DNA of 20,000 bases from an uncultured virus (IMG/VR IMGVR_UViG_3300025390_000008). Lineage: Duplodnaviria; Heunggongvirae; Uroviricota; Caudoviricetes. How positions within the stretch are numbered: position 1 is the first letter of the stretch; each line of letters begins with the position of its first letter. Below the pieces are notes generated by a model. It saw only the letters and a list, made by a program, of their open reading frames with translations, did not search any database and was not told the DNA's origin. Positions 1,438-19,551 of the stretch are shown in pieces. Location of the stretch: the IMG/VR virus record IMGVR_UViG_3300025390_000008; one strand, 5' to 3'. The position numbers and the translations under genes were made by a program.

Positions 1438-1446
1438 GGATTAAAC

Positions 1447-3285
1447 ATGGCGACTTCACCTAACGCGATGATGGGACAGGTGGCACCTGGTGCTCCGTCA
1501 AATTTATCTCCTTCTGTCATTGCTCAGCTGCAGCAGGAAATGATGGTTATGCCGCTGGACCAGCTTCAGCAGTATGCCCAACAACACATGGACGACCCCG
1601 TCTACGGTCCTACGGTTGTATCGATGGCGTCGTATGTCGCCAACATGAAGAAGTCTGCCCAGGCTCCTCAAGTTAACGCTACCCAGCCTACCGTGGCCCA
1701 ACAGGCCGTGCAAAACATTGCTCCTCAACAAGCGCCTCAAGGTATGCCCATGCAGGCTCCTCAGGCGCGCCCTACCCAAGGACCGGTAACGCCTGCCCTG
1801 CCGGAAGATCAGGGTATTGGTCAGCTGATGGCCAAGAACATTGAGAACATGGCTGGCGGCGGTATTGTTGGTTATGCGGGCGGTGGTCATGTTCCAAGCT
1901 ATGCCGGAAGCACTGACGGTAGTTTGGTAACAGGGACGAGTACTGGAGATATCAACTCTCGGTTCTCCAACTTGGCCTCGCAGGTAAATCAAGCTCAGAA
2001 TCAATTGGCGGGCGCTTATGCCTCTGGCGATCCTCAGTCCATATCCCTGTATCAATCTCGTCTAGCAGATCTGAAATCTCAACTGAATAATCAGGCTGGT
2101 AATCAGGCGGACCTATTGCTTAGGCAGAATCCTCAACCAATGGGTGCAGCCATTCCTACTACGGCTCCTGCAACGGCGGCGGCTATGGCGGCTCCTCCTG
2201 GTGAAGCTAGTAATGCGTCGCCTACTACGCCTGCGCCAGCCCCTGCTGCTGCACCGGCAACACCCGGAGCAACTGGTAATATTACCAGCGGCAACTCAGC
2301 AATGAGTCAAGGTTTGGGATCGTTTGTATCGCCCACCGGTAAGATGATTGCAGATGCCAAGAAAGCCTTGGGTGATGATGCTAATATGACTTTGAAAGAT
2401 CACGTTGCTCAGGCCCAAGGTATGCTGCCTCAGGTATATAGCTCTGATGATGCTGATCTTGAGATCCAAGCACAGAAGTTTAGAGATGCTGTGGGCGGTG
2501 ATCCTGCATTCAAGAAAGACCTTGACCGACTGGATAAGTTGGATAGCAAGTTGGAAAAGAACAAGCAAGATTCTGTTGGAATCAATACCTTGTTGGCTGG
2601 CTTGAGCATGATCAGGTCTGGTAATCCTTGGGAGGCTATTGCACAAGGTGCGGGCACTGGTCTCAAGAGTTACAAAGATGATATGGACAAGATTGACAAA
2701 GCCCAAGAAGAGCATGAAAAGATGCGTCAGAACTTGGATGTTGCGGCTATGGCTAACAACATGGGCTTTACCCGTATGGCTGCTGACAGCGTTAAGGAAG
2801 CCAAGTCGGCTCAGGTTCGCTCGGCTGAAGCTGCTTTGAGTGCGGGCTCTCATGCTTTTGATGCTGAGCAGCAACGCATGACTACTTTGGCAGGCGAAAA
2901 TATTCGCGGTCAGTATGGTCTGCAGCAAGCGGCAATTGGTGCTAATGCTCCGTCTCAAGAAATCAAAACCTTGTCGGCATTCGCAAGCAATCCGCAGTTG
3001 GCTGAGCAATACAAAAACTCGCCTCAGTATCAGGCCCAGTTGCGGAATGATATTGTGAGCGCCATGAATACTGCACAAAAGACGCTTGGTGATTTGACTG
3101 CCAGCGAAGATGACCGCGCAGAGGCTCGCAAGAAGATTGTTGGCTACCAGAACCAGCTTCAAGCAATGTTCAATCAAAATGCACCATTACCGGCTGGCCT
3201 GCCGACTGGCGCAAAGTTTGTGGGCACCAGCGGTGGCAAGCGCGTATATGAATTGCCAAACGGTAAGCAAGTGGTTGAACAATAA
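1447..3285 (+). CDS. Putative internal virion/ejection protein (612 aa)
   Basis: RBS AAGGA before ATG1447; MAGGGIVGYAGGG motifs; Pro/Ala linker and helical/coiled-coil C-half; lies between the pilot-like and giant virion genes. Confidence 0.65.
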   Translation: MATSPNAMMGQVAPGAPSNLSPSVIAQLQQEMMVMPLDQLQQYAQQHMDDPVYGPTVVSMASYVANMKKSAQAPQVNATQPTVAQQAVQNIAPQQAPQGMPMQAPQARPTQGPVTPALPEDQGIGQLMAKNIENMAGGGIVGYAGGGHVPSYAGSTDGSLVTGTSTGDINSRFSNLASQVNQAQNQLAGAYASGDPQSISLYQSRLADLKSQLNNQAGNQADLLLRQNPQPMGAAIPTTAPATAAAMAAPPGEASNASPTTPAPAPAAAPATPGATGNITSGNSAMSQGLGSFVSPTGKMIADAKKALGDDANMTLKDHVAQAQGMLPQVYSSDDADLEIQAQKFRDAVGGDPAFKKDLDRLDKLDSKLEKNKQDSVGINTLLAGLSMIRSGNPWEAIAQGAGTGLKSYKDDMDKIDKAQEEHEKMRQNLDVAAMANNMGFTRMAADSVKEAKSAQVRSAEAALSAGSHAFDAEQQRMTTLAGENIRGQYGLQQAAIGANAPSQEIKTLSAFASNPQLAEQYKNSPQYQAQLRNDIVSAMNTAQKTLGDLTASEDDRAEARKKIVGYQNQLQAMFNQNAPLPAGLPTGAKFVGTSGGKRVYELPNGKQVVEQ

Positions 3286-3296
3286 AAGGATCGGTC

Positions 3297-6200
3297 ATGC
3301 CGTTTCAAGAATTTACGGGGCAGTTGGATGCGCCTTCGATGGCCCCCAAGTGGCAAGAGTTCAATGGAACCCTTGACGATTTAACTCCCAAGGCCGTCCC
3401 CAAACCGGAGGCTCCTAAGCCACAGGCTGGTTTGATGAGCGAGCTGGAGCGCGGCGGTCATGAGATCTACTCTAATCTCCGCACGGCGCTCACTGCCCCG
3501 TTCGTTGGCTCTGATGTAGCCGCTCGGGCCGGTGCAGAGCGTGCAGAGGAATACAACAAGACTGCCGCTCCCTCGGTGGATGTGCTGGGCGATATCCAGA
3601 AAGCGTACCAAGAGAAGGGCATCCTAAGCTCTATTGGCGCTGGCTTAAAAGACCTGCCTGCTTTGGTGGGCCAGGTTGCTCCTACGGTGGCTGAGTATGG
3701 TGCTGCTGAAGCGCTGCTGCCCGTGGTTGGTCCTGCTGCTTTGTTCTTGGCTCAGCACTACGGTCAAAACGTCGCCCAGACTGCGGCCACTCAGATGGCT
3801 CAAGGTCGTGATGTGGATGTGGATTCCCTGAAGGCGCTGGGTTATGCCGTGCCTCAGGCCGCTCTGGACGTGGCACATATTTCCATTCCTCTTGGTAAGC
3901 AAGTCATCGGCAAGATCTTTGGCAGAGGCGTAGAGGAAGCTGTTGAGAAGGGTGCGATGAGCGAGGCTGAGAAGCTGGCTCAAGAGCAGCTGGCCAAGAA
4001 GAGCTTTGGCGAATCCATTCAAGACGGCCTCAAGACTGGTTTGGTCAGCGGCGTGCCCATCATGGTAGCGCAGACAGCCTTGGAACGCGCATACAACGGC
4101 GATAAGCTGTTCGACGATGATGCCCTACACCAATACGGTAGCGCTGCTTTAAGTGGCGCTCTGATGGCTCCTATGGGCGTGCTCGGTGCTTTGTCCGAGA
4201 AGAGCCAAGCTGCCAAGGCTGTAGGCGAGCGTGATTCCGCTGCCGCCAAAGCTGCTGCTGAGGCCGCTGAAGCTGAGGCAAACAAGCCTGAGAATCTGCT
4301 CAAACTGCACGAAGATTTCCAGAATGCCAAGGCGGAGCAGGCTGATCTGCGTAACCAGATTCCAAGCAAGCCTAAGAAGGATGCGCCCGAGGAAGAGGTC
4401 CAGGCTTACAACGATGCCAAGACTGCTGCCGATCAGCATTTGAACGACGTTCTCAAGCCGTTGAAGTTGGAATTTGACCAGCGCAAAGATGCCATCATGC
4501 CGGTGGTATTGGCCGACCAAACGGCCAAGATCAATGCTGCGGCTCAAGCCCAGTCGGCTATGGAGACGGCTATCCCTCAAGAGACGGCTGCTGCTCCTAT
4601 TAACAATGCCCCTCCGATTACACGCGCTACCTTGCCCGGTCGGGACATGGCCGCTCAGCTCACTGGTAACGTTGGCTTCAATCAGAACCTGTTGCAGGCT
4701 GGCCGTGAAGGCGCAGAACAGCGTGATGTTGCCACCCAGAATGCCATGCGCGTTGCTGCTGATAAACGTGCCAACCAGATCCTGAGCACGACGTTCAGCA
4801 ACGACCCTGCCATGAATATCATGAAGCAGACCTCGGCCCTGAAACAGATGGGCTATGAGGCCGTGCCGGACAAGAAGGGTAACCTGGTAGCCAAGCCTAT
4901 CGCTGAGCCCGCACCAGTTGAGGCGCCAGCACCAACTGCTCCGCTGCAAGCCAACCCTGAGACCATGCGTGCAAACTTGGAAGCACCTGCTGGCCAAGCC
5001 AATGCCGCCTTCATGCAAGCTGCCAGAGAGGCGCGTGAGGCTACTGCCAAACGTGATGCTGCCGCTCAGAAGGCGCAGGAGCAGGCTAAGCAAGCTCAGG
5101 CTAACCAAGTCCTGTCCACCACGTTTAGTCCCGATCCATCTATCAATGCGCTGCGTCAGAACGCCGCCTTGAAACAGTTGGGTTATGAGTCTGTGCTGGA
5201 TAAAAACGGCAAGCAAGTTGCTCGTCCAGTGGTAACGTTACCACCTGAGCTCGCTCCTGAGCCCGCACCAGCCCCTGCTCCGTCGCCCGTTGGTAATGCT
5301 GACGCCTTGCGCGCACGTCTGGCCACTGCTGGTAACGAAGCCAACCAGAATATGCTGCAGGCTGCCCGCGATCGACTGGCCGCCCTTGAGAAACAGAAGG
5401 CTGCCGACACTACCGCCCAAGCTCAGAACATTGTCAAGAGCACGATGAGCGCTGATCCGGCGATCGATATTGCCCGTAAGAAGAGCGCCCTGGCTGAGAT
5501 TGGCCATGAGTTGGTTCAAGATCCGAAGACCGGCGAGATTACAGCGCAACCCATCAAGGAAGCTGCTCCCGAGATGTCAGACGTTCGTAAGAATGTTTTG
5601 AGCCGTCAGTACGACGAAGAGTTCAAGAGCCTTTTCCCTGATCATGAGCCTGAGCATTTGGAACAGTTCCGCTCCATGCCTGCTGAGTCCAAGGATGCCT
5701 TCTTGCAGTTATTCTCTGATGCCAAAGAGCGTCAGACCATAGAGAATCCTTCGTTTGACGAGTTGGCATCTAAGCAGACTAAACCTGTCGCTGGGCCAAA
5801 GAACGTTCCCGAGAATCCTGATGTTGTTGAATCATCCAAAGAAAGCAAACAGCTGACTGCCGATATCAACAAGCTGAAGAACAGCAAAGACAACTTAAAG
5901 AACGCGCTGAAGGGTTCGTTGAATGCCAATGACGCTACCGATGTAAGCCCTGAGAAAGATTTCCTGCGTTACTTTGCCAGCAAAGACGGTCGAGGCCGGT
6001 CTATTTCCGAATTGGTTTCAGACAAAACGTTGGATCGTTTCTTGCCAGAAAATATGCGCCCAGGCTCTGATGACTTTGACGCTCAGGTCTCGGAGGAGTA
6101 CATCAAGCAAAAGCTGCGTGATGAGGACTACGCAACCCCTGAGGATGCACAAGAGATCAGCAGGTTGAGCGATCAGAAGTGGGAGCTGGAAAGCTATCTC

Positions 6201-9200
6201 GAAGAGCAAGAGCGTGCCAAGAAGGCCAACGAATCTGTAGCTGGAATTTCTACCGAAGTAACGCCTGAGGGTTTACCCGTACGTACAGATAATCTGTACC
6301 GTGTGCAGGGCGAGGCCAAGGGCGTGCCGGTTAACTTGGTACAAAGACTGGTTAACCAGATCAGAGAAGGCTGGGCGAATGCCCCTGAGATACAAGTTCA
6401 CGCCGATGAATCTACTTTGCCTGATCACATTCGTGCCCAAGCTGAGCGCGATAAGGTGACTGGCCAGATCCCTGGTGTCTACGATCCCAACTCCAAGATT
6501 GTTCACATCGTCAGCAGTAACTTGGCAGATGTTAAAGATCTGTTTGCCACTGTGGCCCACGAAGCAGCAGGCCACTTTGGTTTGCGCGAGATGCTGGGTG
6601 ACCAGTATGGCCGCACGATGGACAAGATCTACGAAGGCAACAAGGCCGTTCGTGAAGCTGCTGATGAGAAGCTGAAGGGCTCTAACCTGTCGCGTCAGGT
6701 GGCCACAGAAGAAGTCTTGGCGGAAATGGCTGAGAGCGAGAAGACCTCGACACCGGCTGAGCGCAGTGCCCTGAAGCAGATCTATGACACCATTCGTCGC
6801 TGGGTCTACGACAAGTTTGGTATTGGCGGGATGACCGACAATGACGTTAAGCAGATCGTTGCTAATGCCCGCAAGTTTGTGGTCGAGGGCGGTGAGAAGG
6901 GCGCTGGTAATATTACCAGTGAAGCCGTTTACCGTACCAAGTACAACCCTGGCTTCGAGAAGGCTGCTGACCTGACCAAGAAAGTCTTGTCGTCTGAGCG
7001 CCCATTCATGGAGCAGTTTAATAAGACTGCCTTTGGCCGTGCGTCGCTTGGCTGGATCCAGAAAGTCCAAGATCAATACCGTCCTTTCCTGAAGCTTACG
7101 CAACTCAAGGATGCCAATGGCCAACGGTTGATCGGCGACTCGGCTGGTAACCAGATGATGTCTGACCTGCGGTTCTATCAGCAGCGTCTGAACTTCTTGG
7201 GTGCCGTCATCCAGAACGGTGCCTTGACATTCAAGAAAGGCGTCGTGGATGGCGCTAAGCGTTCGCTCTACGAGACCGATGGCAAGGAAAGCCTGAAGCA
7301 GGTCTTTACTGAATTGCGCCCTGCAGACAAGATTACCGGCAGCCGTGAAGCTACCAATGCCTTGTATTCGCTGTGGGCTATTGCCGAGCGGGTGCGTAAG
7401 GGCGGCGCTACGCTGGAGCAGTTGAACTTTGACCCGAACATCGTCAATGCCAAGTCGCTCAAGGCGGCGATGGATGAGATTAAACAGCATCCTGAGCTGA
7501 TCAAGACGTTCGAGAGGGCCAACGAAACCTATCAGAATTTCAACTCCAACATGATGAAGTTCGCGGTGGATGCTGGTGCTATTCCCAAGGCTACTGCCGA
7601 CAAGCTGTTGTCGCGTCGGGACTACGTTCCTTACTACCGCGAAGAGCCTGATGGAACTATTTCCATGATGTCCAATGGTGAGTCGATCTTTAAGGTTGGC
7701 AACATCAAGACCCAGCCTGAGTTGAAAGCTCTGATTGGCGGCGACCAGCGGATCTTGGACTTTGCTGAGAGCTCTGTGCGTAATGCCAACATGCTGCTAA
7801 GCATGGGTATGCGTAACCAGGCGGTTAAGAATTCTATGTTTGAGCTGCAGAAGATCGGCTTAGTCGATATCCGCGACAAGGCTCCGAAGAACATGGAAAA
7901 GGCCGTGGAGTTCAAAGTCCAAGGCAAGAGCAAGTATGCCGTCTTTGACGACGCCGCTACTGAGAAGCTGAACATTCCTACCCAGTTATTCATCAAGGGC
8001 TTGGAAGGTGTTCCAACACAGATGAGCACATGGCTCAAGGTGATGAGCATTCCCAGTACCGTCCTGAAAGAAATGTTCGTTGCCAACCCCATCTCGGCAG
8101 CGCGTATCGTTTTCAAGGATACGATGTCTTCTGCCCTGGTGGCGGGCTCTGACTTTGGCAAGATCGTTGATTCCTTGCAGAGCGTTAAAGACGGTTTGAT
8201 GGTCAAGCGTGGCCTGTCGGGCGGTCAGTTGTTCACTGGCCAACCAGAAGAGATTGCCCGTGTGCTGCGTCAGGCTCAAGCCGGTGGTGTTAACGCTTCC
8301 AGCGCCTTGGCTATGGCCCATGCCTTGCACGCTCAAGCCGATGCTGCGACCCGCCAGATTCGCTATGACAGCTACCTGCATCAAGGTCTGAATGAGTTTG
8401 ACGCCAACCTGATGGCGCTGGAGTCGATGAACTTTACCAAGCGTGGTTTGTCTCCCAGCATCCATATCTTGAATGCGCTGAACCCGTTCATTAACTCTCA
8501 GATCCAAGGCGTCAATACGTTGATCGCAGCCATTCGTGGCGAGATGCCTATGCAAGAGCAGCTGCGTATTAAGCAGAAGATCCTTGCTCGCGGTGCGATG
8601 ATTGCTGGCGCGACAATGCTTTACTCTGCGCTTATGCAGGACAACAAGCACTACCGTGACGCCATGCCGGACCAGAAGTATTCCAACTGGTACATGCCCT
8701 TCCCAGGCTTGGAAGAGCCGGTAAAGATTCCAATTCCGTTTGAAGCCGGTATGCTGTTCAAGTCGGTGCCTGAGGCGATGGTCGAGCTGTTCATGAAGCA
8801 CGACAAGTCGGCGATCGACGGCCTGAAGATGACGGCCATGCGGATGATCCCCGGCCTTGAGACTTCTGCTGTGGCTCAAGCTGTTCGCCCTGGCTTGGAG
8901 GCTTACACCAATACATCCTTGCAGACTGGTGAGACGATCCAGAGCGAACGTGAGTTGAAGATGCTTCCCGGCGAACGTATCCGTCCTGGCACTTCTGGCA
9001 TTGCTCAGGAGATTGGTGGCGCTTTGAATCTGTCACCCGTCATGATCGATCACGTCATTGGTGGATACACCAGCTCGATGGGCATGGCTCTGATGCACAT
9101 TACTGATGGCATCGTTGGCTCCAAGATGCAGGGCGCTCCGGTGGCCAGCGACTTGTCTCAGACGCCTGTGATTGGTTCGCTGTTCGCTCGGGACGGCGGG

Positions 9201-9503: not shown

Positions 9504-9512
9504 CTGGAATTA

Positions 9513-9794
9513 TTACCACTCAGCGGATTCTGGATAGTTTTCCATGAGCCGCTGGATGGTAACGTTTAGGGCGTCGAGCTCATCCATTTTGGCGATGATC
9601 CATGCCCGCTTCTCGCCGTGGATACCCATCTTAGGTCCTTGGTGGCAGTCGTAACAGAGGGCGATGCACGTGTACTGACTGCGCTGCCGGAAGTGGTGGG
9701 CGGCGCTGGGTCCAGGTGCATTGCATACTGAGCACGGGAGAAGCTTCACCCTTTTGAGATGACGCCTCTCCTTTGCGCTTAGCTTGTTATTCAC
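9513..9794 (-). CDS. Ref/DUF968-like Zn-binding HNH-fold nuclease
   Basis: PCSVC...AHH...ALCYDCH..G..GIHG pattern; last gene of the leftward operon. Confidence 0.7.
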   Translation of the reverse strand: MNNKLSAKERRHLKRVKLLPCSVCNAPGPSAAHHFRQRSQYTCIALCYDCHQGPKMGIHGEKRAWIIAKMDELDALNVTIQRLMENYPESAEW

Positions 9795-10681: not shown

Positions 10682-10962
10682 AATGGCAAGTCTTCCTCGG
10701 GCATGTCATGGCGTGGAGCCTGACGTGGTGCCTGAGGTTTGTAGTCGTCGTACTTCAGGCTCAGGAAAGTGCCTTTGGTTCCTTGGCGTTTCCATCCGCT
10801 GATCTTTACCTTTACCGAGAAGCCGTCTTCGGATTCTTGGATCAGTTGCTGGAGCAGGCTGATGTCGAGGTCGATGCTGCCGTTGTAGTCGGGGGCTTTC
10901 TCGCTACGCTTTGGCAGTTTGGCTGCGAACAGTGCGCCGGAGTTTGGGTATTGGTTGCTCAT
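10678..10962 (-). CDS. Putative single-stranded DNA-binding protein (94 aa)
   Basis: Start MSNQYPNSGALF via ATGA overlap with the ERF stop; APDYNG motif; acidic-aromatic EEDLPF tail typical of SSBs; directly downstream of the annealase. Confidence 0.6.
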   Translation of the reverse strand: MSNQYPNSGALFAAKLPKRSEKAPDYNGSIDLDISLLQQLIQESEDGFSVKVKISGWKRQGTKGTFLSLKYDDYKPQAPRQAPRHDMPEEDLPF

Positions 10963-11654: not shown

Positions 11655-11847
11655 TGTTTTTCCTTTGTTGATTGGATGGGTGGAGCAGCCATTTCGGGCC
11701 GAGCAGTTTAATGGACTGCTGTCGCTTTGCTTCGTTGGTTTCGGCCAGTACACGCAGAAGCTCTGGCGTGACGGGGCCGTGGAATATGCTGTCGCTGATA
11801 GGCTGAGGGTTCATCAGCTCTGGAAAAAATATGTGTTTAATGTTCAT
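11641..11847 (-). CDS. Hypothetical protein (68 aa)
   Basis: AAGGAG RBS and ATGA coupling with the upstream gene. Confidence 0.65.
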   Translation of the reverse strand: MNIKHIFFPELMNPQPISDSIFHGPVTPELLRVLAETNEAKRQQSIKLLGPKWLLHPSNQQRKNNVSV

Positions 11848-12062
11848 TTGTTTCTCTCCTTGTTAATCCCTGCCATGAATCCTTTGTCCCATGCCTTCGC
11901 CCAGCAGATGCACCACAGGTCGTAGTAGCCACGGTTAAGCGGGAAACCAAAGCCTTCTTCTGAAAACATGGCCTTCACGTCTTTGCGCTTTATGAACGAC
12001 TCCCACGAATTGTCTCGTTCACGGTTCATTAGTGGCACATCATCAAACAGTCCTTCAGTCAT
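11844..12062 (-). CDS. Hypothetical protein (72 aa)
   Basis: AGGAG RBS and ATGA coupling. Confidence 0.7.
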   Translation of the reverse strand: MTEGLFDDVPLMNRERDNSWESFIKRKDVKAMFSEEGFGFPLNRGYYDLWCICWAKAWDKGFMAGINKERNK

Positions 12063-12307
12063 TCTGTTTCTCCTGAATTAAGCATTTTTAAACTTCCAAC
12101 AGTTTCGTTGCCGCAGCCGTCGCCGTCGCCGAAGCCGTTGCCGTTTCCGTAGCCGTAGCCGTAGCCGTTGCCGTCGCCGTAGCTGTAGCCGAAGCCGTAG
12201 CCGTTGCCGCCGTAGCCATCGTCGCCGTCGCCGTCGCCGTTTCCGTAGCCGTAGCCGTCGCCGTCGCCGTAGCCGTAGCCGTTGCCGTTGCCTATTGGCC
12301 TAAACAT
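12059..12307 (-). CDS. Gly-rich (G-N/Y/D-G) low-complexity protein (82 aa)
   Basis: Start MFRPIG overlaps the upstream TAA (TAATG); body is a degenerate hexamer repeat. Confidence 0.65.
   Translation of the reverse strand: MFRPIGNGNGYGYGDGDGYGYGNGDGDGDDGYGGNGYGFGYSYGDGNGYGYGYGNGNGFGDGDGCGNETVGSLKMLNSGETE
12110..12292. repeat. Degenerate hexanucleotide tandem repeat (GCCGTA/GCCGTC/GCCGTT)n
   Basis: Directly visible; encodes the Gly-X dipeptide run on the minus strand. Confidence 0.9.
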
Positions 12308-12624
12308 TAAAGCCCCCAATCATCTGCAACGGGAACGCAAAACACTTCTGCATTTTGAGGCAGGTCAACACCTTGCGGTAATGGTTTGATAATTGCTTTA
12401 TCGCTCTTTGGATTAGCAATTACGCCATCAAATCCAATTGATTCCCATCGGAATAACCAAACGGCTCGGCTCAGTTTAATGCGTCCATTTTCTCGATTTA
12501 CATCTCCTGCGAAAATCCAGCCTCGATCAACCACAATTACAGCGCGAATGCCGGTTGGTGCAGGTTGTACGGAATCGGCGCGAACATAATCGACGCCATT
12601 GATAGAGATGGTTTCATTTTTCAT
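12307..12624 (-). CDS. Phage protein, DUF6948-like (105 aa)
   Basis: MKNETISINGVDYV start with AAGGA RBS (alternative start 12654); VIVVDRGWIFAG..LSRAVWLFRW; pairing with a downstream Gly-rich ORF is a familiar phage arrangement. Confidence 0.55.
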   Translation of the reverse strand: MKNETISINGVDYVRADSVQPAPTGIRAVIVVDRGWIFAGDVNRENGRIKLSRAVWLFRWESIGFDGVIANPKSDKAIIKPLPQGVDLPQNAEVFCVPVADDWGL

Positions 12625-12650
12625 TTCAATTTCCTTTGTGGTTTGGTTAA

Positions 12651-12707
12651 TCATTCTGTTATTCCTGTTGCATCCAGCGCCATGCGTAAGGCTTCGTCTT
12701 TAGTCAT
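12651..12707 (-). pseudogene. 18-aa mini-ORF MTKDEALRMALDATGITE, probable deleted cassette remnant
   Basis: Starts at the junction-repeat ATG with a full RBS; N-terminus parallels MKDEALKLALEAL of the adjacent gene; ends in another AGGA..ATGA junction. Confidence 0.6.
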
Positions 12708-13150
12708 GTGTTCTTCTCCTTGAGTTTGGCTTCGATGCGTCTTGCGTAAACATCAATGGTCTGTGTTGGCAAACCTTGTAAGCATTCTTGTATTTCCTCA
12801 TCCGTCAGCCCAACCCATGTGCGCTGTGGTGACAACATTTTTTGAACATCCCCACACATTACTTTGATTGCGTTGTAGCCTTCAGGATCATTGCTGTCTG
12901 CAAGTTCATAAGCCTCTTGCATAATCCTGATTCTGATGGGTTCAAAGTCTTTGTTGCTCATCCACCCCACAGGCTCCTGCACAGGTGCTGCAAGGGCTTG
13001 CTTAATGGCGGTGATGGCTTGTTGCGTCCGATATGAACCGCCCAGTCGCCACACAGCAACATCGCCACTATTTTCTCCAGTCAACATATCAGGAATACCA
13101 AACAGTTTTTCCAACGCCTCCAGCGCCAGCTTCAATGCTTCGTCTTTCAT
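12704..13150 (-). CDS. Modular hypothetical protein (DEALKLALEAL / QEPVGW / WVGLTDEE / IEAKLKEKNT)
   Basis: Bounded by junction repeats at both ends. Confidence 0.8.
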   Translation of the reverse strand: MKDEALKLALEALEKLFGIPDMLTGENSGDVAVWRLGGSYRTQQAITAIKQALAAPVQEPVGWMSNKDFEPIRIRIMQEAYELADSNDPEGYNAIKVMCGDVQKMLSPQRTWVGLTDEEIQECLQGLPTQTIDVYARRIEAKLKEKNT

Positions 13151-13392
13151 GTGTTCTTCTCCTGCGCTGCTTTCAAAATTGACCGAGCAAAATCAATGAT
13201 GCGGATTTCGGTCGGGGCGTATTTAATGGTCTTATCCCAAATTTGCATGATCTCTTCATGCGATAGGTCAATCCATTCGTCCTTTGCATTTAAGGATTTG
13301 CCCGTTATCTCCAGCATGTTTTTCAGGCGATGGAGTTCCATCTCAACGTCTTTGAGTTTTGAAATTGCCTCAAATGTTTTTTCGTGCTTCAT
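13147..13392 (-). CDS. Modular hypothetical protein (81 aa; WIDLSHEE..EKNT)
   Basis: GAGGAG RBS before ATG13392 (MKHEKTF); ends in the junction repeat. Confidence 0.75.
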   Translation of the reverse strand: MKHEKTFEAISKLKDVEMELHRLKNMLEITGKSLNAKDEWIDLSHEEIMQIWDKTIKYAPTEIRIIDFARSILKAAQEKNT

Positions 13393-13543
13393 CCCGCATC
13401 TCCTCAAGTACAGTTTTAAATTGGTTGTTGACAATATCCAGTTTCAACATTTCTAAAATACCAACTACATGTGATGCTGGCAAAGTACCGTTGTATTTCA
13501 TAACAAGATCAAATAATTCAACCATCAATGTACTAGCGTTCAT
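13370..13543 (-). CDS. Hypothetical protein (57 aa, MNASTLMVELF...)
   Basis: Start supplied by the junction repeat at 13540. Confidence 0.7.
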   Translation of the reverse strand: MNASTLMVELFDLVMKYNGTLPASHVVGILEMLKLDIVNNQFKTVLEEMRDEARKNI

Positions 13544-13761
13544 GTGTTCTTCTCCTTGAGTGGATCGGTTGTGAACTTGATGTCGCCAATGGCAACCCAA
13601 TAGCCCTCTCGGTATCCTTCGTAGTGAGCAAGCCACCTTCCGTTCAAATCTTCATCGCTCATGTGGGGAACGTCGCCTTTTTTCATTGCCTCGACGTAAG
13701 CGTTCTTTCGGTTGGTCGCATATCTTGCGGCATCAAGATGCAGTTGTTCTGATGGTGTCAT
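13540..13761 (-). CDS. Hypothetical protein (73 aa, ends LKEKNT)
   Basis: Junction repeats at both ends. Confidence 0.75.
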   Translation of the reverse strand: MTPSEQLHLDAARYATNRKNAYVEAMKKGDVPHMSDEDLNGRWLAHYEGYREGYWVAIGDIKFTTDPLKEKNT

Positions 13762-14042
13762 GTGTTCTTCTCCTCGGCGTAGCCGTTCTTTTGCTTGAGT
13801 TTGGCTTCAATGGCTTGGGTCAGATTACGCAACCACGATTCATCTTTTGCACAAGTGGTTGTTTCTTCAAGTGTTAGCATTTCCTCATCAGTCAGCCCAA
13901 CCCATTCACGCTTCTTTAGGCGCTCTCTTGCGGCGATTGCCCTAATAAACATTGACATGGGGTGCGTAACGGGATACGCAGATTCAAGACCAGCCTCTTC
14001 TCTAAACCAAGCTAGGTTTTTAACCAAGTCCTCGTCTGTCAT
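13758..14042 (-). CDS. Modular hypothetical protein (94 aa; WVGLTDEE..IEAKLKQKNGYAEEKNT)
   Basis: Junction repeats at both ends. Confidence 0.75.
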   Translation of the reverse strand: MTDEDLVKNLAWFREEAGLESAYPVTHPMSMFIRAIAARERLKKREWVGLTDEEMLTLEETTTCAKDESWLRNLTQAIEAKLKQKNGYAEEKNT

Positions 14043-14212
14043 GTGTTCTTCTCCTTTTCAACTGGCCCATTAAACAGCGCCATGCCCAGCGATCCAAGCA
14101 TGACCGCCTTCAACTCTTCGCGCTCCTCTTCTGGATATTCACTGGCGACCTCATCCATGATTTTCATAATGCTGGCGGCCACTTCTTTTGCGGGAATCGG
14201 CTTTGCGCTCAT
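14039..14212 (-). CDS. Hypothetical protein (57 aa, MSAKPIPAKEVAASIMK...VEKEKNT), absent from the ORF track
   Basis: Translated by hand: 174-nt open frame running exactly between two junction repeats. Confidence 0.75.
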   Translation of the reverse strand: MSAKPIPAKEVAASIMKIMDEVASEYPEEEREELKAVMLGSLGMALFNGPVEKEKNT

Positions 14213-14406
14213 GTGTTCTTCTCCTTGTCGTATGGCCCTACCCCCAACTCTTTGGCGATTTTGTGTTGCAACTCCGTGATTCGGTGAGTGTTGCCAGCCA
14301 CTTGTGCATTTAGCAAACGAACATAACCAAGCGTGTTTTCATTGTGGTCTACAAGCAAACGCAGCTCTTCTTGCAACCGTTTTAGATACGTTGTTGGTTT
14401 ATCCAT
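14209..14406 (-). CDS. Hypothetical coiled-coil protein (65 aa, MDKPTTY...DKEKNT)
   Basis: Start ATG lies in the variant junction repeat with AAGGAG RBS. Confidence 0.7.
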   Translation of the reverse strand: MDKPTTYLKRLQEELRLLVDHNENTLGYVRLLNAQVAGNTHRITELQHKIAKELGVGPYDKEKNT

Positions 14407-14743
14407 TGTTCTTCTCCTTGAGTTTGGCTTCGATGGCTCGGGCGCGACCTTCTGCTGTGATGTAATTTCCCAAACATTCATCGCGCTCCTCATCCGTCAA
14501 CCCAACCCATTCACGCTTGCCCATTGCGTTGACTGCTTTGTCCACGCTTGATTGCATCTGTTTTTGCATTCCATCAATAAAGCCACGCTCGTATTCGCTG
14601 GCGTGCTTTCGCCAATCATCGTTGATATCCTGCAGTATCTGCTTGCCCAAGTTGGACTGTCTTTCCACCTCGTTAAAGGCTTCGTCTTCCTCCGGCGTCC
14701 AATCAACGCTGAGTCGGTCAAATACAAGTTCTACTTTTTTCAT
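14399..14743 (-). CDS. Modular hypothetical protein (114 aa; WTPEEDEAF / YERGFIDG / WVGLTDEE / IEAKLKEKN)
   Basis: TAAGGAG RBS; shares modules with paralogous ORFs in the array. Confidence 0.75.
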   Translation of the reverse strand: MKKVELVFDRLSVDWTPEEDEAFNEVERQSNLGKQILQDINDDWRKHASEYERGFIDGMQKQMQSSVDKAVNAMGKREWVGLTDEERDECLGNYITAEGRARAIEAKLKEKNNG

Positions 14744-14752
14744 TGCTACTCC

Positions 14753-14974
14753 TTAGATGATGGTTGTTCTGCGGGTGGCGGACTTTGGAAAGAACACCAG
14801 CGAGAAGACGGGGAAGTCGATCTCTTCTTTCGGGTCAACCCGCTCGGTGTTAATAATTACAGCGCCTTGCTGCATGTGGCGACGTAGTTCTCCGCCGCTC
14901 ATGTCAGTGCATGGATGCTCTGCTGACATAGGAATGGCAGGGCGTAAGTTGCTCAGGTATTGCAGGGCGTTCAT
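14753..14974 (-). CDS. Small protein with S4-like RNA-binding motif
   Basis: SGGELRRHMQQGAVIINTERV resembles the S4 consensus S-x-x-E-A-R-R-L-I-x-x-G-A-V-x-I-N-G; ATGA coupling. Confidence 0.5.
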   Translation of the reverse strand: MNALQYLSNLRPAIPMSAEHPCTDMSGGELRRHMQQGAVIINTERVDPKEEIDFPVFSLVFFPKSATRRTTII

Positions 14975-15207
14975 TGCTGCTCATTCAACTTCTTTTTCAG
15001 TGCACGGTTCTCATCCATGACTTCTTGAAGCATCTTTAGATGTTCTTTGTGGCGCTGCTCCATGACGGAAACCACTTTTTCAAAGTCAAGCATCCATTTC
15101 TTGATTGCTTGCTTGAGTAGCTCGGCGTTATACCAAATGTAGTGTTCGGTGACACCTTCAATCTTTACGCTGTCTTTCACAATAAATTCTTTAGTATTCT
15201 CATCCAT
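14971..15207 (-). CDS. Hypothetical protein (78 aa, C-terminal coiled coil)
   Basis: AGGAG RBS before ATG15207 (MDENTKEF), overlapping the exonuclease stop. Confidence 0.7.
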   Translation of the reverse strand: MDENTKEFIVKDSVKIEGVTEHYIWYNAELLKQAIKKWMLDFEKVVSVMEQRHKEHLKMLQEVMDENRALKKKLNEQQ

Positions 15208-16069
15208 GTTGCTGCTCCTGGTAACGTTTCCACTGATCACAAAAAGGTGCTGCTTGGCAGTAGCCCTCGCAGCGCGTTCTACCGCCAGGACGAACCTCAA
15301 TGGCGTATCCCTTGGTCAATACCGCTTCAGCTTCTTCCAGCGTCTTGTGGACTGATTTGGCCCGCTTACCGCCCTCTTTCATCACGGCGTACATCGTGGG
15401 TTTCTCCCACATCTCTTCAGGTGTGCATTCAGGCAGGTCGAAGTTGGCGGCGATCGCAAACACGGCATCGTTGTGTGCGCTCAGGCGTCTGGCTACATAC
15501 TGCTCGGCGTATTGAAAATCCCAGATCGGGATATCAATGATGACCACTGGGGCTTGTGGGTAGTTCTCGCGGGTAGTTGCTTCGCGGGCAGACCAGTCGC
15601 GGATGATGGCGCAAATCTGCAGCTTCTTTACATTACTTTGCTTTACTTTACGAACCAGCCAAGCATAGATGTTCAGCTGGTTCTCCCAATCGGCCTTGGT
15701 GTTCATAACAGACCATGCACCAGTAACTTTGTAGTCGCTGATGATGATGCCGTCTTCCTCGACTTCTTGCAGGTCAATAGCGCCAGAGATATGCCAGCCG
15801 TTAAATTCGATGTGCAGCCGCTCTTCAACGATGTGGTGATTGTCTTTGCCGTGCTCCAAGATGCCGTGGACGGCGGAGCCAAAGATAGACCAGACCATTT
15901 CAGAGGCGTCTTGTGTCAGCTCATCCCAATGCTTGTTCTTTAGCTGAACAATGCGGGGCGAATTCAGAATTTCTGTAGCAGATATCTGGGACGCGCCCTT
16001 GGAATACTGAGGCCGCTTGATCACATTTACAAATGTGTCCGGCAAGTTGTGGACATTGGTTATACGCAT
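15200..16069 (-). CDS. PD-(D/E)XK superfamily (RecB/Cas4-like) exonuclease
   Basis: GSAVH..LE, ISGAIDL, DYK and QLNIYAWL motifs, plus C-terminal RC..YC....FC; AGGAG RBS; first gene of the recombination operon. Confidence 0.85.
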   Translation of the reverse strand: MRITNVHNLPDTFVNVIKRPQYSKGASQISATEILNSPRIVQLKNKHWDELTQDASEMVWSIFGSAVHGILEHGKDNHHIVEERLHIEFNGWHISGAIDLQEVEEDGIIISDYKVTGAWSVMNTKADWENQLNIYAWLVRKVKQSNVKKLQICAIIRDWSAREATTRENYPQAPVVIIDIPIWDFQYAEQYVARRLSAHNDAVFAIAANFDLPECTPEEMWEKPTMYAVMKEGGKRAKSVHKTLEEAEAVLTKGYAIEVRPGGRTRCEGYCQAAPFCDQWKRYQEQQHG

Positions 16070-16103
16070 TCATACTCCTATAATTGGGGTTACGAACATC
16101 CTT

Positions 16104-16118
16104 ACTGGTTGTTCTGGT
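16104..16118 (-). promoter_or_regulatory. 15-bp box ACCAGAACAACCAGT (copy 1)
   Basis: Exact copy at 18302-18316 on the + strand; both lie just downstream of a -10 element. Confidence 0.65.
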
Positions 16119-16122
16119 AGAT

Positions 16123-16151
16123 ATGCTATCAGGTATATTCTGGAAATGCAA
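16123..16151 (-). promoter_or_regulatory. Sigma70-type promoter of the leftward operon
   Basis: TTGCAT-17 bp-TAGCAT with TGn extension on the minus strand. Confidence 0.6.
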
Positions 16152-16170
16152 CACATGAGGAAAAATATTT

Positions 16171-16464
16171 ATGGCACGTAGGGCGATGAGGCAGGACGAC
16201 AATCATGGGGCGGTGGTGACTGCTCTGCGGGCGATGGGTGCTACGGTGCATACGATCAGCCAAGGCGGTGGGATACCGGACTTGCTGGTGGGTTATAAGG
16301 GGAAGACGGCGCTGCTGGAAGTGAAGGACGGGGACAAGCCGCCGAGTGCGAGAAAGCTGACGGAGCCGGAGGAGAAGTTCTTTGCGAGCTGGTCAGGTGG
16401 TCCGCTGTTTATAGTGAACAGTCCTGAGGAGGCTTGTGCCATGCTGGAGCATCTTGGAGCGTAG
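16171..16464 (+). CDS. VRR-NUC domain nuclease (Holliday junction resolvase-like)
   Basis: GIPDLLVGYKG..LLEVK..LTEPEEKF motif; GAGGA RBS. Confidence 0.85.
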   Translation: MARRAMRQDDNHGAVVTALRAMGATVHTISQGGGIPDLLVGYKGKTALLEVKDGDKPPSARKLTEPEEKFFASWSGGPLFIVNSPEEACAMLEHLGA

Positions 16465-16483
16465 TGGAGCATTGTGGTATACT
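16445..16483 (+). promoter_or_regulatory. Extended -10 promoter (TGgTATACT) preceded by three phased TGGAGC repeats
   Basis: TGGAGC at 16445, 16455 and 16465 (10-bp period); TATACT at 16478-16483. Confidence 0.45.
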
Positions 16484-16549
16484 GAACCCGCTATTGCATT
16501 CATACATCCCTTGGTGGGTTCCACGGCTTCTTCGGAGGCCGTTTTTTTT
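16484..16549 (+). ncRNA. Candidate small antisense RNA against the exonuclease RBS/start
   Basis: Stem 16484-16493/16512-16521 with loop GCATTCATAC-A-TCC complementary to mRNA GGA-GUAUGAAUGC (16066-16078); ends in a terminator. Confidence 0.5.
16523..16549 (+). terminator. Rho-independent terminator
   Basis: ACGGCTTC-TTCG-GAGGCCGT (cUUCGg tetraloop) followed by a T run. Confidence 0.9.
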
Positions 16550-16550
16550 G

Positions 16551-16566
16551 CTGGTAATATTACCAC
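16551..16566. promoter_or_regulatory. Palindrome TGGTAATATTACCA, intergenic copy of a dispersed motif
   Basis: Perfect 14-bp palindrome covering the -35 position of TACAAT (16575-16580); other copies at 2273, 5229, 6904 and 18870, near-copies at 9504 and 15218. Confidence 0.7.
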
Positions 16567-16586
16567 TTGGCAGGTACAATTGTTCC

Positions 16587-16770
16587 TGCGTACCAAGACG
16601 CATGGGGATTGGCATAAATGGCTTACCCGCTGGAATAAACCGACAAATACCGGGTTAATGCCAAGTCGGGCTAACAGTCCCCAGTCGTGTTGGTAATGGG
16701 TTGGGGGCGAGTAGGCGAAAGCTGAAAGGGTCGCCGTGTGCAGATACACCCTGCGATGCACACACCAACA
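16587..16770 (+). ncRNA. Candidate structured RNA(s)
   Basis: Stems TGGGGATTG/CAGTCCCCA (16603-16611/16675-16683), TGTTGGT/ACCAACA (16688-16694/16764-16770), GGCGA/TCGCC and GTGTGCA/TGCACAC; AGTA-GGC-GAAA-GCT-GAA loop-E/GNRA hairpin. Confidence 0.5.
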
Positions 16771-16777
16771 ATATTTT

Positions 16778-16926
16778 CGGGTTGAAGCGTGATGTGGTGG
16801 CACGATTGCACATTGGGTGCAAAACTTCTTCTGTGGCTACTTGCTTGAACGGCAACTTCTAGAGTGCGTAATAAACAGCAGGGTGTGTTAGAAGTCTATC
16901 TGGTTCGACTCCAGACGACCCGACCA
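16778..16926 (+). tRNA. tRNA-like element (Pro-like acceptor) with ~75-nt variable-region insertion and non-canonical anticodon loop
   Basis: Acceptor CGGGTTG/CGACCCG + A + CCA; T-arm TCTGG-TTCGACT-CCAGA (16899-16915); D-arm CGT..TGG..ACG; anticodon-position stem TTGCA-CATTGGG-TGCAA; total 149 nt. Confidence 0.6.
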
Positions 16927-16927
16927 A

Positions 16928-17010
16928 TTTAGGGGGAAAGCGGATGCTGGTTACTTGTTCTAGACAGGGCACATAAAGAGACACTAGACGCAGCGAGTAC
17001 CCCACCTAAA
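16928..17010 (+). ncRNA. Candidate structured RNA with loop-E/sarcin-ricin-like motif
   Basis: GGGG-GAA (16932-16938) opposite AGTA-CCCC (16996-17003); inner helices CTGGT/ACTAG and CTTGT/ACAGG. Confidence 0.45.
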
Positions 17011-17018
17011 AAAAGTTG

Positions 17019-17045
17019 TTGACAACAGTTCTATCTGTGTATAAT
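17019..17045 (+). promoter_or_regulatory. Sigma70 promoter TTGACA-15 bp-TATAAT
   Basis: Both hexamers are perfect consensus but the spacer is short (15 bp); A-tract upstream; palindrome TGTTGACAACA (17017-17027) overlaps the -35. Confidence 0.65.
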
Positions 17046-17054
17046 CCAAAACAT

Positions 17055-17200
17055 CAACGGATTGGTAACCCGTTGTAGTTCGTAGAAACGCAACCGCAAA
17101 CCCATTGGTGAGCGGGCTTCGTCAAAGCTGGGATGTCCTGTCTACGCAGGCTCTTATGCGGCAACCAAGCCTAAAGCTCGTTCACCAATGGGTTTTTTGC
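17055..17200 (+). ncRNA. C4/CI-like antisense or attenuator module
   Basis: 22-bp stem 17098-17119/17174-17195 followed by Ts; internal TCTACG (17141-17146) and ACCAA (17164-17168) complement upstream CGTAGA (17081-17086) and TTGGT (17062-17066). Confidence 0.5.
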
Positions 17201-17205
17201 TTTTT

Positions 17206-17622
17206 AGCCGTATACCTTGATCTGGTAATTTAACGGGCACATGAACGGTTTGGCCCAGATCGAGAGCCATAAAAAGTATCGACGTGGCAAGCGCGGGTGG
17301 AGATAGCGCCAGATGTTGAGTAAACCGCCAGAACGGATCTAGGTCGAGAGATTGAGGTAATCCGGGGCAACGGCAACATTTGGGACAAGCTCGGTCAGTG
17401 CGCTAAGAAGGGGTCTCACAATGGGCCTAAATGTCTGACAGCTACGGCGGAACATTGAGAGATGACCGTAGCCAATGTAACGAAGGAAACGACCGACGTG
17501 ATATTGTTCTTCAGCCAACCCCGCGTCCTGTGGGCTAGGGGTGGGTTGTGTCCAGAGCTTCAGTCTTCTCCCTCCGTGATGTGGGTGTAATACCTTGTAT
17601 TTAGTGGCTCAGACCGATACTT
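17206..17622 (+). ncRNA. Candidate large pseudoknotted RNA upstream of the HNH gene
   Basis: No ORF of 60 aa or more in the track; many 6-10-bp helices, including long-range pairings 17264-17281 with 17600-17622. Confidence 0.5.
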
Positions 17623-17635
17623 ACCGGAGATGTAG

Positions 17636-18229
17636 ATGGCTAATCAGGTTGATAAGAGAGTTAAGGGTAGTGCCTTACCTTGGTTTATCACGTCGCGGGT
17701 CCGAGCTGATCGTCGGCTGGGGCTGAGTGAGATGGAGCAGGCGTGTCTAGCCCTGGAGGCTGAAGGTATGCCCTGCCCTGCCGATGTAAGCTTTGAGGCG
17801 TGGGTCAGGACCAACTTTGCCTATATCTGTGCTAGGTATATGGAGAAGTATCCAAAGCCTATTGGCAGTAAGGTAAAGCCCCGTCCGTCCAGGGCTCAGC
17901 GCAAGGCAGCTAGTCAACTTCGTCGTAACGCCAAGTCAGAAAAAGCGCCCGTTAAGCGGGTCGTCAAGGTGTGTGGTGTTGATGTGACCACCGACGCCTT
18001 TTTATCGACGTATGAATGGCGCAGGGTGCGTATGGAGGCGCTGAAGAAGTTTGGGCCTAAGTGTCAGTGCTGTGGAGCTACTCCCGCCCAAGGAGCTGTT
18101 ATGAACGTTGACCACATCAAGCCACGTAAGCTGTATCCAAACTTAGCCCTCAATGTAAACAATCTTCAGATCCTATGCCATGAGTGCAACCACGGTAAGG
18201 GCAATTGGGATCAAACCGACTGGCGGTAA
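17636..18229 (+). CDS. HNH endonuclease (197 aa) with N-terminal extension
   Basis: CQCCG..NVDHIKP..NNLQILCHECNHGK; GGAGA RBS. Confidence 0.92.
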   Translation: MANQVDKRVKGSALPWFITSRVRADRRLGLSEMEQACLALEAEGMPCPADVSFEAWVRTNFAYICARYMEKYPKPIGSKVKPRPSRAQRKAASQLRRNAKSEKAPVKRVVKVCGVDVTTDAFLSTYEWRRVRMEALKKFGPKCQCCGATPAQGAVMNVDHIKPRKLYPNLALNVNNLQILCHECNHGKGNWDQTDWR

Positions 18230-18258
18230 AAATAATTTGACGGAGATGAAAAAAAGTA

Positions 18259-18286
18259 TTGCATGATAATTTTCCTATGATATGCT
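18259..18286 (+). promoter_or_regulatory. Sigma70-type promoter of the rightward operon
   Basis: TTGCAT-16 bp-TATGCT with TGn extension and upstream A-tract. Confidence 0.6.
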
Positions 18287-18301
18287 ACCACCTACAAAGA
18301 C

Positions 18302-18316
18302 ACCAGAACAACCAGT
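18302..18316 (+). promoter_or_regulatory. 15-bp box ACCAGAACAACCAGT (copy 2)
   Basis: Exact match to the reverse complement of 16104-16118. Confidence 0.65.
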
Positions 18317-18341
18317 TGACAATTACAGGGAGCACGGCAAA

Positions 18342-18797
18342 ATGAGAAAACGGACAAAGCGCAAGGTGTATGCACTGGTGAACGTTATTCAGCACGCTAT
18401 GGAGGGAGCGGCGCTGGTAGACGGTAAGCCGCTGGAGGATTTAAGGACGAGGGAGTTGCTGGCTTTGGAGGCGTTCCGATCGGGCACAGCGACACCGAAT
18501 GATTGGCGGTCTATTTCGGCGATGGTGAACATTGCTGAGGTGATGGCTAAGAAGGGCGTGGGGCCAGAGGCGATTGAGGTTTGCCGAGAGGCGGAGCTTC
18601 AGTTGCTGGATGACCATGTCAGGTTTGAGAAGACCGGAAAGATGGGCACGACAGCGGGGGGCTTAACGGCTTACCGCGAGGTGTATGAATACCATGACTT
18701 GCAGAGGACATCTATCAGCAGGTCAGAGTATGAGAGGTGGATAAAGAAGACCGCTGACATTTTGAAGAGCGGCCAGGATGTAGTTCATTTAACCTAA
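18342..18797 (+). CDS. Phage hypothetical protein (151 aa, MRKRTKRK...)
   Basis: GGGAG RBS before ATG18342; the track start 18282 lies inside the -10 box. Confidence 0.75.
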   Translation: MRKRTKRKVYALVNVIQHAMEGAALVDGKPLEDLRTRELLALEAFRSGTATPNDWRSISAMVNIAEVMAKKGVGPEAIEVCREAELQLLDDHVRFEKTGKMGTTAGGLTAYREVYEYHDLQRTSISRSEYERWIKKTADILKSGQDVVHLT

Positions 18798-18809
18798 AAA
18801 GGAGTTTGT

Positions 18810-19157
18810 ATGAAACGAGAGATTAACGATAACGTGGCGGCTTGTAAACAGATCGATCACGACCAGCGGCTGGTAACGTTACCAGTTTACGTTCACCACT
18901 ACCGCCAATACGATGGCAAGTTTGCTTTTTCGATCTCATCGTTTGACCAAAGCAAATACAGCTCGGAGTATGTGTTGGTGGGTAAGACTGAGTTGGTGTA
19001 TTTAGTTCCAGAGGAATTCGATCCGATCGCCCAAGAGGTGGCTGCCCTGCGCCGCAAGAAGATGGACGTGATCAATGAGTTCAATAAGCGGGTCAAAGAG
19101 ATCGAGGAGCAGATCGGTAAGCTGACTGCTATTGAACACACGCCTGCGGAGTTCTGA
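18810..19157 (+). CDS. Hypothetical protein (115 aa, C-terminal coiled coil)
   Basis: AAGGAG RBS. Confidence 0.8.
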   Translation: MKREINDNVAACKQIDHDQRLVTLPVYVHHYRQYDGKFAFSISSFDQSKYSSEYVLVGKTELVYLVPEEFDPIAQEVAALRRKKMDVINEFNKRVKEIEEQIGKLTAIEHTPAEF

Positions 19158-19158
19158 C

Positions 19159-19548: not shown

Positions 19549-19551
19549 ATC

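Follow-up and report, generated by a model that had tools for sequence, protein, structure and literature searches.

A dispersed 16-bp palindrome in a tailed-phage genome as a probable site of the phage's own ParB-like protein

Why does one 16-bp palindrome recur across the genome of a tailed phage, mostly within coding sequence? The question arises from a 20,000-nucleotide stretch of an uncultured virus (IMG/VR record IMGVR_UViG_3300025390_000008), referred to here as the window. The window encodes a giant protein with an LPD38 domain, an Erf-like annealing protein, SSB, an exonuclease, and nucleases including HNH, and searches of 29 of its open reading frames (ORFs) with PHROGs and Pfam found no regulator. 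In the present study, the palindrome was followed into records that overlap or are related to the window, from which genome-level site counts were taken. We consider the palindrome to be probably a site of the phage's own ParB-like protein, P0001, used for something other than classical partition.

Is the repetition real? The window contains five exact matches to STGGTAAYRTTACCAS. They are CTGGTAATATTACCAG at 2273..2288 in a 612-amino-acid gene (1447-3285; reading GNITS), GTGGTAACGTTACCAC at 5229..5244 in a 2068-amino-acid LPD38-domain gene (reading VVTLPP), CTGGTAATATTACCAG again at 6904..6919 in the latter gene (reading GNITS), CTGGTAATATTACCAC at 16551..16566, right behind a terminator-like hairpin (16523-16542) and a T run, and CTGGTAACGTTACCAG at 18870..18885 in a 115-amino-acid gene (18810-19157; reading LVTLP). 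One copy with a single mismatch, CTGGTAACGTTTCCAC (15218..15233), lies at the 3' end of a PD-(D/E)XK exonuclease gene (15200-16069; reading WKRYQ), and a variant with two mismatches, CTGGAATTATTACCAC (9504..9519), occupies the convergent junction 3' of the 2068-amino-acid gene. All seven had been listed in an earlier reading of the window from its letters (the sequence-only reading), and their positions and letters were verified. In 200 dinucleotide shuffles, the mean number of matches was 0.03 and the maximum was 1; the observed counts were never reached (0/200). Perfect palindromes of at least 10 bp number 11 in the window, the five longest being four 16-bp and one 14-bp copies of this site. 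The 26 genes of the window hold four exact coding copies and five at one mismatch or fewer. The means from 2000 synonymous codon resamplings were 0.008 and 0.136, respectively, and the observed values were reached in none, such that the enrichment holds against codon-preserving controls. The five coding copies span all three frame offsets (GNIT twice, VTLP twice, and WKRYQ once). The repeated palindrome is a real feature. Since synonymous resampling never matches its counts and all three offsets are used, the constraint is on DNA, as the sequence-only reading had held, and a constraint at the protein level is ruled out.

The consensus obtained from relatives is wider, approximately STGGWAAYRTTWCCAS. 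The copy at 15218 had been regarded as a near-copy, and it does differ from STGGTAAYRTTACCAS at one position; however, because the consensus is wider, it is a full member of the family. The centre of the palindrome varies (CG, TA, CA/TG, and others). Six window sites were aligned to G004, a relative with 82-99% identity by block. Five were identical, namely those at 2273, 6904, and 15218, the site at 5229, which is unchanged although the flanks compared hold several substitutions, and one other, whereas the site at 18870 was lost, which indicates that copies turn over. In G003, the 18870 copy is preserved and the 15218 copy bears a single central change. A site near the end of the 2068-amino-acid gene is also present in G004, G011, G012, G013, G014, and G015. 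At two mismatches or fewer, there are 11 sites in 24 kb of G002, 14 in 39 kb of G004, seven in G001, and three in G003. Most sites lie within coding sequence at roughly random spacing; the coefficient of variation of the gaps was 0.73-1.06 in the four records tested, which rules out the regular spacing of every few kilobases that had been proposed. The suggestion that the copy at 16551, alone among the seven, lies at a likely promoter is also unsupported, because the terminator-like hairpin adjoins it and a promoter scan of 16000-17700 that requires a spacer of at least 16 found no promoter-like sites. By eye, TTGACA, 15 bases, and TATAAT, with TG just before the second hexamer, were noted at 17019-17045, in a 1.2-kb stretch without a convincing gene (16465-17635). 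This element, the spacer of which is too short for the scan, is likely a rightward promoter.

Which protein may read the palindrome? Positions 14301..20000 of the window (+ strand) are 100% identical to G002 1-5700. This shared 5.7 kb links the window to P0001, an orphan ParB-like gene of 266 amino acids (G002 6200-7000, + strand) some 500 bases past the end of the window, with genes for helicase and primase behind it; G001 corresponds to window 1-13018 at 100%. P0001 comprises a ParB domain (residues 1-99), a helix-turn-helix (approximately 124-147, with Ser135-His136-Val137), a linker, and a coiled coil (approximately 182-265). Two copies of the motif lie 24 bases apart within the coding sequence of its linker (G002 6692-6707 and 6716-6731), and the variant at 9504 is of the same type as both. 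In the structural model, the mean predicted local distance difference test (pLDDT) score was 83.5, with the linker (152-179) below 50 and helices 125-132 and 136-147 at block values of 83-94. The top Foldseek matches of this model were ParB, Noc, and KorB (best E 2.5e-8). VIA-align gave Z 13.7 against Noc (root-mean-square deviation 1.9, 96 residues aligned) and Z 13.0 for residues 1-147 against KorB (3.0, 136 residues), and the alignments to KorB and to Caulobacter ParB extend across the helix-turn-helix as far as residue 147. The PHROG "ParB-like partition protein" matched P0001 with an E value of 3.8e-12; Pfam ParB_N scored 21.5 bits, below its cut-off of 26.3. A homodimer model scored 0.44, against 0.00 for the best of three controls, with interface residues 194-266. 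Contact agreement between runs was at least 43% and pLDDT at least 59. Of the solved homodimers, 20 of 30 attained the mark for this score, as did one of 23 single chains, and a coiled coil may attain it through general resemblance. The predicted dimer module is unlike that of ParB. Of 2646 candidates scored, 1871 are homologues of P0001. Among 35 related virus records, 34 have the gene; 23 of the 35 were picked for carrying it, and 12 were reached through the exonuclease (11 of these 12 carry it). In the GenBank phage collection, only three records match P0001, none with a named host.

Q18, R20, G58, R61, and N94 are invariant in 55 homologues and align with the QPR, GERR, and EN motifs of ParB. 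Provided that the alignment has no gap in its final 12 residues (model 147 = 6t1f 184), His136 corresponds to Arg173 of Caulobacter ParB. According to PMC7383237, Arg173 is a specificity residue that reads G, and the Gln of Noc reads A.

Does the palindrome change with this part of the protein? It follows the two residues behind the conserved serine: His-Pro/Val goes with TGG[TA]AA, His-Thr with TGGCAA, and Pro-Gln with CGTTAA. Counted as exact 12-base matches, 11 His-Pro/Val records contained 77 TGG[TA]AA sites (in 11/11), two TGGCAA, and no CGTTAA; three His-Thr records contained two TGG[TA]AA, 13 TGGCAA (in 3/3), and no CGTTAA; and four Pro-Gln records contained CGTTAA alone (10 sites, in 4/4). 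The 16 records with other residues held six TGG[TA]AA sites and none of the other two types. Locus L359 (His-Thr) has seven TGGCAA sites at one mismatch or fewer plus one in the gene, and L397 (His-Pro) has three TGGTAA sites and a further in-gene one. All 4096 possible palindrome arms were then scanned for, blind to the protein, in 34 records; G001 and G003, the rows of G033, G038, and G039, and the last 104 bases of G007 were left out. The top family reached p <1e-5 in 13 of the 34 records, and in 12 of these it had an xxxxAA arm. TGGTAA or TGGAAA was recovered from seven His-Pro/Val records and from G023 (Pro-Met), CGTTAA from two Pro-Gln records, TGGCAA from G028 (His-Thr), CCCAAA from G029, and TACTAT from G011. 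Two alternative motif scans, with a sensitivity below that of the 4096-arm scan, revealed no further family. On a FastTree tree from which the helix and linker columns were excluded (136 rows left of 284 once redundancy had been filtered out, 60 of them with both traits), Thr and C at base 4 were compared in 11 independent pairs: 6.6 changed in the same way, 0.1 in the opposite way, and 4.3 showed no difference (median p 0.031, range 0.004-0.375).

The same correspondence appears inside the ParB-like genes themselves. A near-palindrome with an AANNTT core occurs in the linker after the helix-turn-helix in 54 of 170 distinct homologous genes, against one of 170 in an equal N-terminal stretch. 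In 121 proteins compared by eye, the linker peptides spell the site and follow the two helix residues: G[NK][VI]T[TS] in 42 of 50 His-Pro proteins, GNVAT or VATLP in 11 of 21 His-Thr, V[NS]VDT in all four Asn-Thr (two lineages, as judged by flanking sequence), DNVIT in all three Gln-Pro, and [ST]VKTN or SVNFN in 25 of 26 Pro-Gln. The pairing of Gln-Pro with TGATAA that these peptides suggest agrees with the Gln of Noc reading A. In distant homologues from bacterial genomes, a perfect palindrome with 6-bp arms follows the helix in 12 of 79 genes, against two in the control stretch; two of the 12 are T/A runs, and the four in His-first homologues with mixed-sequence palindromes all start with TGG. 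L502 (His-Pro, a Rhodoferax record) carries CTGGTAGTTCTACCAC and three further near copies in 12 kb. We also noted 16-bp palindromes of their own after the helix-turn-helix in the distant genes L482, L489, L495, L501, L502, L508, L510, L519, L536, and L538. Homologues in G014, G015, G016, G021, G031, and others have an extra K/R-rich segment (e.g. KYxTPxG) after the helix-turn-helix, which P0001 does not have; this segment contains the in-gene site in G014 and G015.

For a further comparison, a rule that took no account of ParB was used to select a palindrome upstream of the gene for a LexA-type winged-helix protein (G002 14566-14883), which lies between two terminase genes. In 27 records, the picked site had an AANNTT core in 16 (against 10% of random windows) and was a perfect palindrome in 13 (against 9%). 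It shows single sites where there is no dispersed family, in G019, G020, G021, G022, and others. Mantel tests were conducted on 23 of the 27 records, with G004 left out as a near-duplicate and three records having no palindrome by the rule; the picks in G010, G014, and G017, and in G006, which has no known family, missed the family site. The picked site correlated with the two ParB residues (rho 0.39, p 0.0015), and the correlation persisted once the LexA-type protein (0.37, p 0.001) or the N-domain of ParB (0.40, p 0.0005) had been removed. The ParB N-domain (0.12) and the helicase (0.16) were weaker correlates.

The palindrome may instead be an operator or stoperator of another phage regulator, such as the LexA-type protein, the protein encoded at 9966-10268, or the terminase small subunit. 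We regard this as improbable. In most records, a site closely precedes the LexA-type gene, as with an autoregulated repressor; the motif has the CTG-N10-CAG shape of a LexA box; and the LexA-type protein, compared by whole-protein distance, shows a weak correlation with the site (rho 0.24, p 0.044). However, the recognition helix of that protein did not follow the site closely (rho 0.18, p 0.09; 0.13, p 0.15 after removing ParB), and neither did that of the terminase small subunit (rho 0.04, p 0.34), both at the low power of 16-23 records. G017 and G028 have nearly the same LexA-type helix and different motifs, and G036 has a divergent LexA-type protein, yet its TGG[TA]AA site fits its own ParB. 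In favour of another regulator, the sites of G002, G008, and G010 gather around the gene for the terminase small subunit, and dispersed stoperators occur in mycobacteriophages (PMC9283540). The protein at 9966-10268, which had been named as a candidate binder, keeps its N-terminal YSVHL unchanged across phages with three motif classes and with none, and this candidacy was abandoned. Furthermore, none of the three proteins explains the copies inside the ParB-like gene.

A number of observations weigh against P0001 as the reader of the palindrome, or against its use of nucleotide. The motif classes of the contingency were drawn from the same data, and the records include near-duplicates. Among the 34 records with a ParB-like gene in the blind scan, 21 had no significant dispersed family; G005, G006, and G030 carry the gene without a convincing site, and G005 and G006 have no site at two mismatches or fewer. 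In the tree test of His against G, 4.0 of only five pairs changed in the same way (p 0.125), and the His-Thr rows of the tree set are split between 12 TGGCAA and 10 TGG[TA]AA. P0004 is His-Val with a Pro-Gln-type linker peptide, G023 (Pro-Met) has four exact TGGAAA sites, and G025, in which the in-gene site is TGGCAA, has TGTAAA ahead of the LexA-type gene. The families predicted from the linker peptides are missing from G019 (Gln-Pro) and G027 (Asn-Thr), so the code words for these pairs come from peptides only; targeted searches for Asn-Thr and Gln-Pro genomes found no long record from a lineage that had supplied the defining peptides. The in-gene sites could hitchhike because they are physically linked to the helix. 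The distance of the terminase large subunit correlates with the rule-picked site as strongly as the ParB residues do (rho 0.39). Without two outgroup records, the values were 0.20 (p 0.06) for the terminase and 0.31 (p 0.009) for ParB; with outgroup and near-duplicates removed, both were weak, at 0.24 (p 0.05) and 0.26 (p 0.03, n 18), respectively. The nucleotide motif of P0001 is GFHR, nearer to sulfiredoxin than to GERR, and 17 of 28 ParB-fold proteins bound no nucleoside triphosphate (NTP) in PMC12704722.

Could a host protein be the reader? The palindrome would then be a site or decoy for a LacI-type or LexA-type regulator or a nucleoid protein, with motifs differing between hosts, and the sequence-only reading had suggested a LacI-type decoy. 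Its shape appears to resemble that of LacI-family operators with a central CG, and CTGT-N8-ACAG, presumably the proteobacterial SOS box, occurs upstream of the LexA-type gene in G023 and G026. However, the centre of the palindrome is not fixed, and the motif switches with the ParB residues between close sister phages, tracking the recognition helix of a phage protein. In 401 genomes of one betaproteobacterial family, which may not be that of the host, STGGWAAYRTTWCCAS was found once each in four, against 10 for a reversed control, and the motif was found in none of five genomes that hold distant homologues. A host reader is highly improbable, and the LacI decoy was not borne out. As the site occurs every few kilobases on the phage and in only four of the 401 genomes, phage DNA would be distinguishable from that of such a host. 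The CTGT-N8-ACAG palindromes (G023 46994 and G026 57561, with three near copies in the L187 locus) could represent either variant sites of ParB or SOS boxes of the host.

Another alternative has the same binder and differs in purpose alone, namely that the ParB-like protein and its sites form a true centromere that partitions a plasmid-like prophage through a host or unrecognized ATPase. The ParB fold and the 16-bp palindrome are in keeping with this, as is the in-gene copy, since parS-359 lies inside parB in B. subtilis (PMC4442127), and scattered OB-type centromere sites are known (PMC5016525). A search for tyrosine integrase (PF00589) was negative in 20 records (completeness 90% or more in 16), in which serine integrases were not searched for; a non-integrating carrier state is possible on this result. 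In contrast, ParA (PF13614) was found in none of these 20 records, whereas the control was positive in 14 of 14. P0001 starts directly with the ParB domain and has no match to (L/F/I)G[KR]G(L/F/I), the motif that PMC12704722 defines for ParA binding, and its gene sits ahead of helicase and primase. Judged by sequence, the phages do not belong to ParABS, with no ParA match in those records and no ParA-binding motif in P0001, and we give the centromere only a slim chance. The earlier proposal of a site for a dimeric protein, parS-like and with a self-marking character, is the part that survives, and the ParB fold match, the predicted coiled-coil homodimer, and the contingency of residues and sites point to such a protein; classical partition, the host LacI decoy, regular spacing, and the promoter do not.

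We return to P0001 as the probable reader of the palindrome; direct binding itself appears very probable. A P0001 dimer, joined by the C-terminal coiled coil, would read each half-site through the helix-turn-helix, with His136-Val137, next to the conserved serine, setting bases 3-4 of the arm. P0001 may load at these sites, as do ParB, Noc, KorB, and BisD; the coding location and roughly random spacing fit a loading site better than a promoter-overlapping operator. If the N-terminal domain still uses nucleotide, the protein would slide outward from the sites and cover the DNA of the phage while leaving that of the host bare, and it is somewhat likely that P0001 is such a nucleotide-gated sliding clamp. 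The likeliest purpose would be a long-range control of phage transcription of the KorB/BisD type, because sites are retained best at gene ends, such as that of the LPD38 gene, and a short way ahead of the LexA-type gene that the two terminase genes flank. We place transcriptional control at slightly below an even chance, and the LexA-type protein is possibly a partner in it. Extra coding-sequence copies would come and go by lineage. The position of the gene ahead of helicase and primase makes a role in replication or genome organization possible, albeit unlikely, and a role in protection or self-marking is doubtful.

We also put forward, as a speculation that is rather less likely than not to hold as a whole, that in a widespread group of non-integrating podovirus-type phages a ParA-free, nucleotide-gated ParB clamp marks and coats its own genome during infection. 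A code of two residues and two bases would diversify between sister phages (at base 3, His-G, Asn-T, and Gln-A; at base 4, Pro-T, Thr-C, and Val-T/A), the LexA-type protein would be a KorA-like lock, and the outcome would be phage-specific self recognition. With a site inside the gene, reader and site would form one transferable cassette.

Other features of the window and its relatives were noted. The G002 capsid protein shares 64% identity with that of Pelagibacter phage HTVC023P and 71% with that of Pag-Yong1/MinM2. In the Pro-Gln phages G008 (36711-37124) and G010 (42713-43482), five sites are gathered in the region of the terminase small subunit instead of being spread out, which resembles a clustered centromere. 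G011 (64 kb) has a separate TACTAT/TAGTAT near-palindrome family (seven copies, p 1e-10) unrelated to the ParB-type site. Among exonuclease relatives at 51-67% identity, a match at two mismatches or fewer was present in two of 46 loci; other long palindromes (CGGGAAATTTCCCG and GGAATATCGATATTCC) lie near the exonuclease gene in L145, L148, and L150-L154. A scan of a viral collection for TGGTAATATTACCA returned at least 121 stretches, in which C/G flanks were not preferred; these matches are mostly chance and uninformative. At 16880-16930, a GGTTCGACTCC...ACCA stretch resembles the 3' half of a tRNA; ARAGORN and Rfam were negative for it, no tRNA was found in the window, and Rfam had no match in 16000-18000. 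On the minus strand, a short ORF of Gly-Tyr/Asn/Asp dipeptide repeats lies at 12059-12319, and several small ORFs at 12704-14743 have common short motifs (WVGLTDEE... and ...EAKLKEKNT), which suggests duplicated or shuffled modules; this block varies among close relatives.

A literature search, largely without subscription papers or supplements, found no description of this ParB-like family or its motif. The mode proposed here appears to resemble KorB-OB, BisD-bisS, and ParB-parS/Noc-NBS, although the phages fall outside ParABS. KorB of RK2 is also a ParB-fold protein with a helix-turn-helix and palindromes scattered over its own replicon, and it acts on promoters kilobases away (PMC13768133). 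However, KorB also partitions with a ParA partner, and none was found in these phages; the phage case further differs in its tailed-phage replicon, its predicted long coiled-coil dimer module, and a specificity that differs between sister genomes. BisD of ICEclc is a ParB-like CTP clamp that loads at in-gene palindromes, spreads, and controls transcription (PMC12409273). BisD has an activator domain, a partner, BisC, and two sites of 23 bp, located in inrR and ssb; the phage family instead has 16-bp sites in one to approximately 15 exact copies per record, often with one in its own gene. ParB-parS and Noc-NBS share the 16-bp palindromes, the best fold matches, and a specificity residue directly behind the helix serine (PMC7383237), whereas the phage proteins have no ParA or ParA-binding motif, GFHR in place of GERR, and another consensus. 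ParB and Noc form two conserved specificity classes, and the phage group many natural variants. HerB of conjugative plasmids has a ParB domain, a helix-turn-helix, a dimer module, and early action after entry (PMC13370423), but it binds host chromosomal sites, whereas the sites of the phage family lie on the phage. The stoperators of cluster A mycobacteriophages are likewise many sites for one phage protein across a genome (PMC9283540); they are asymmetric and read by a monomeric immunity repressor, unlike the symmetric sites and ParB-fold protein considered here.

Orphan ParB-fold proteins of phages were surveyed in PMC12704722, according to which missing DNA cofactors are one possible reason for the lack of NTP binding; the main text of that paper, as far as available, has no occurrence of "palindrom" or "intragenic" and names no sites. 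Orphan ParB folds are common in phages and mostly without a known ligand or job, and the present study supplies a candidate site, matched variants, and residue swaps. New here are a compact code that links residues to bases and the comparison of the site with rival regulators. If the proposed reading is true, the family would be a natural library for the evolution of ParB specificity, and orthogonal protein-site pairs for DNA labelling may be possible. Self recognition, if true, could allow these phages to exclude or ignore co-infecting relatives, and gene control by a sliding clamp would extend from plasmids and integrative and conjugative elements to phages without ParA.

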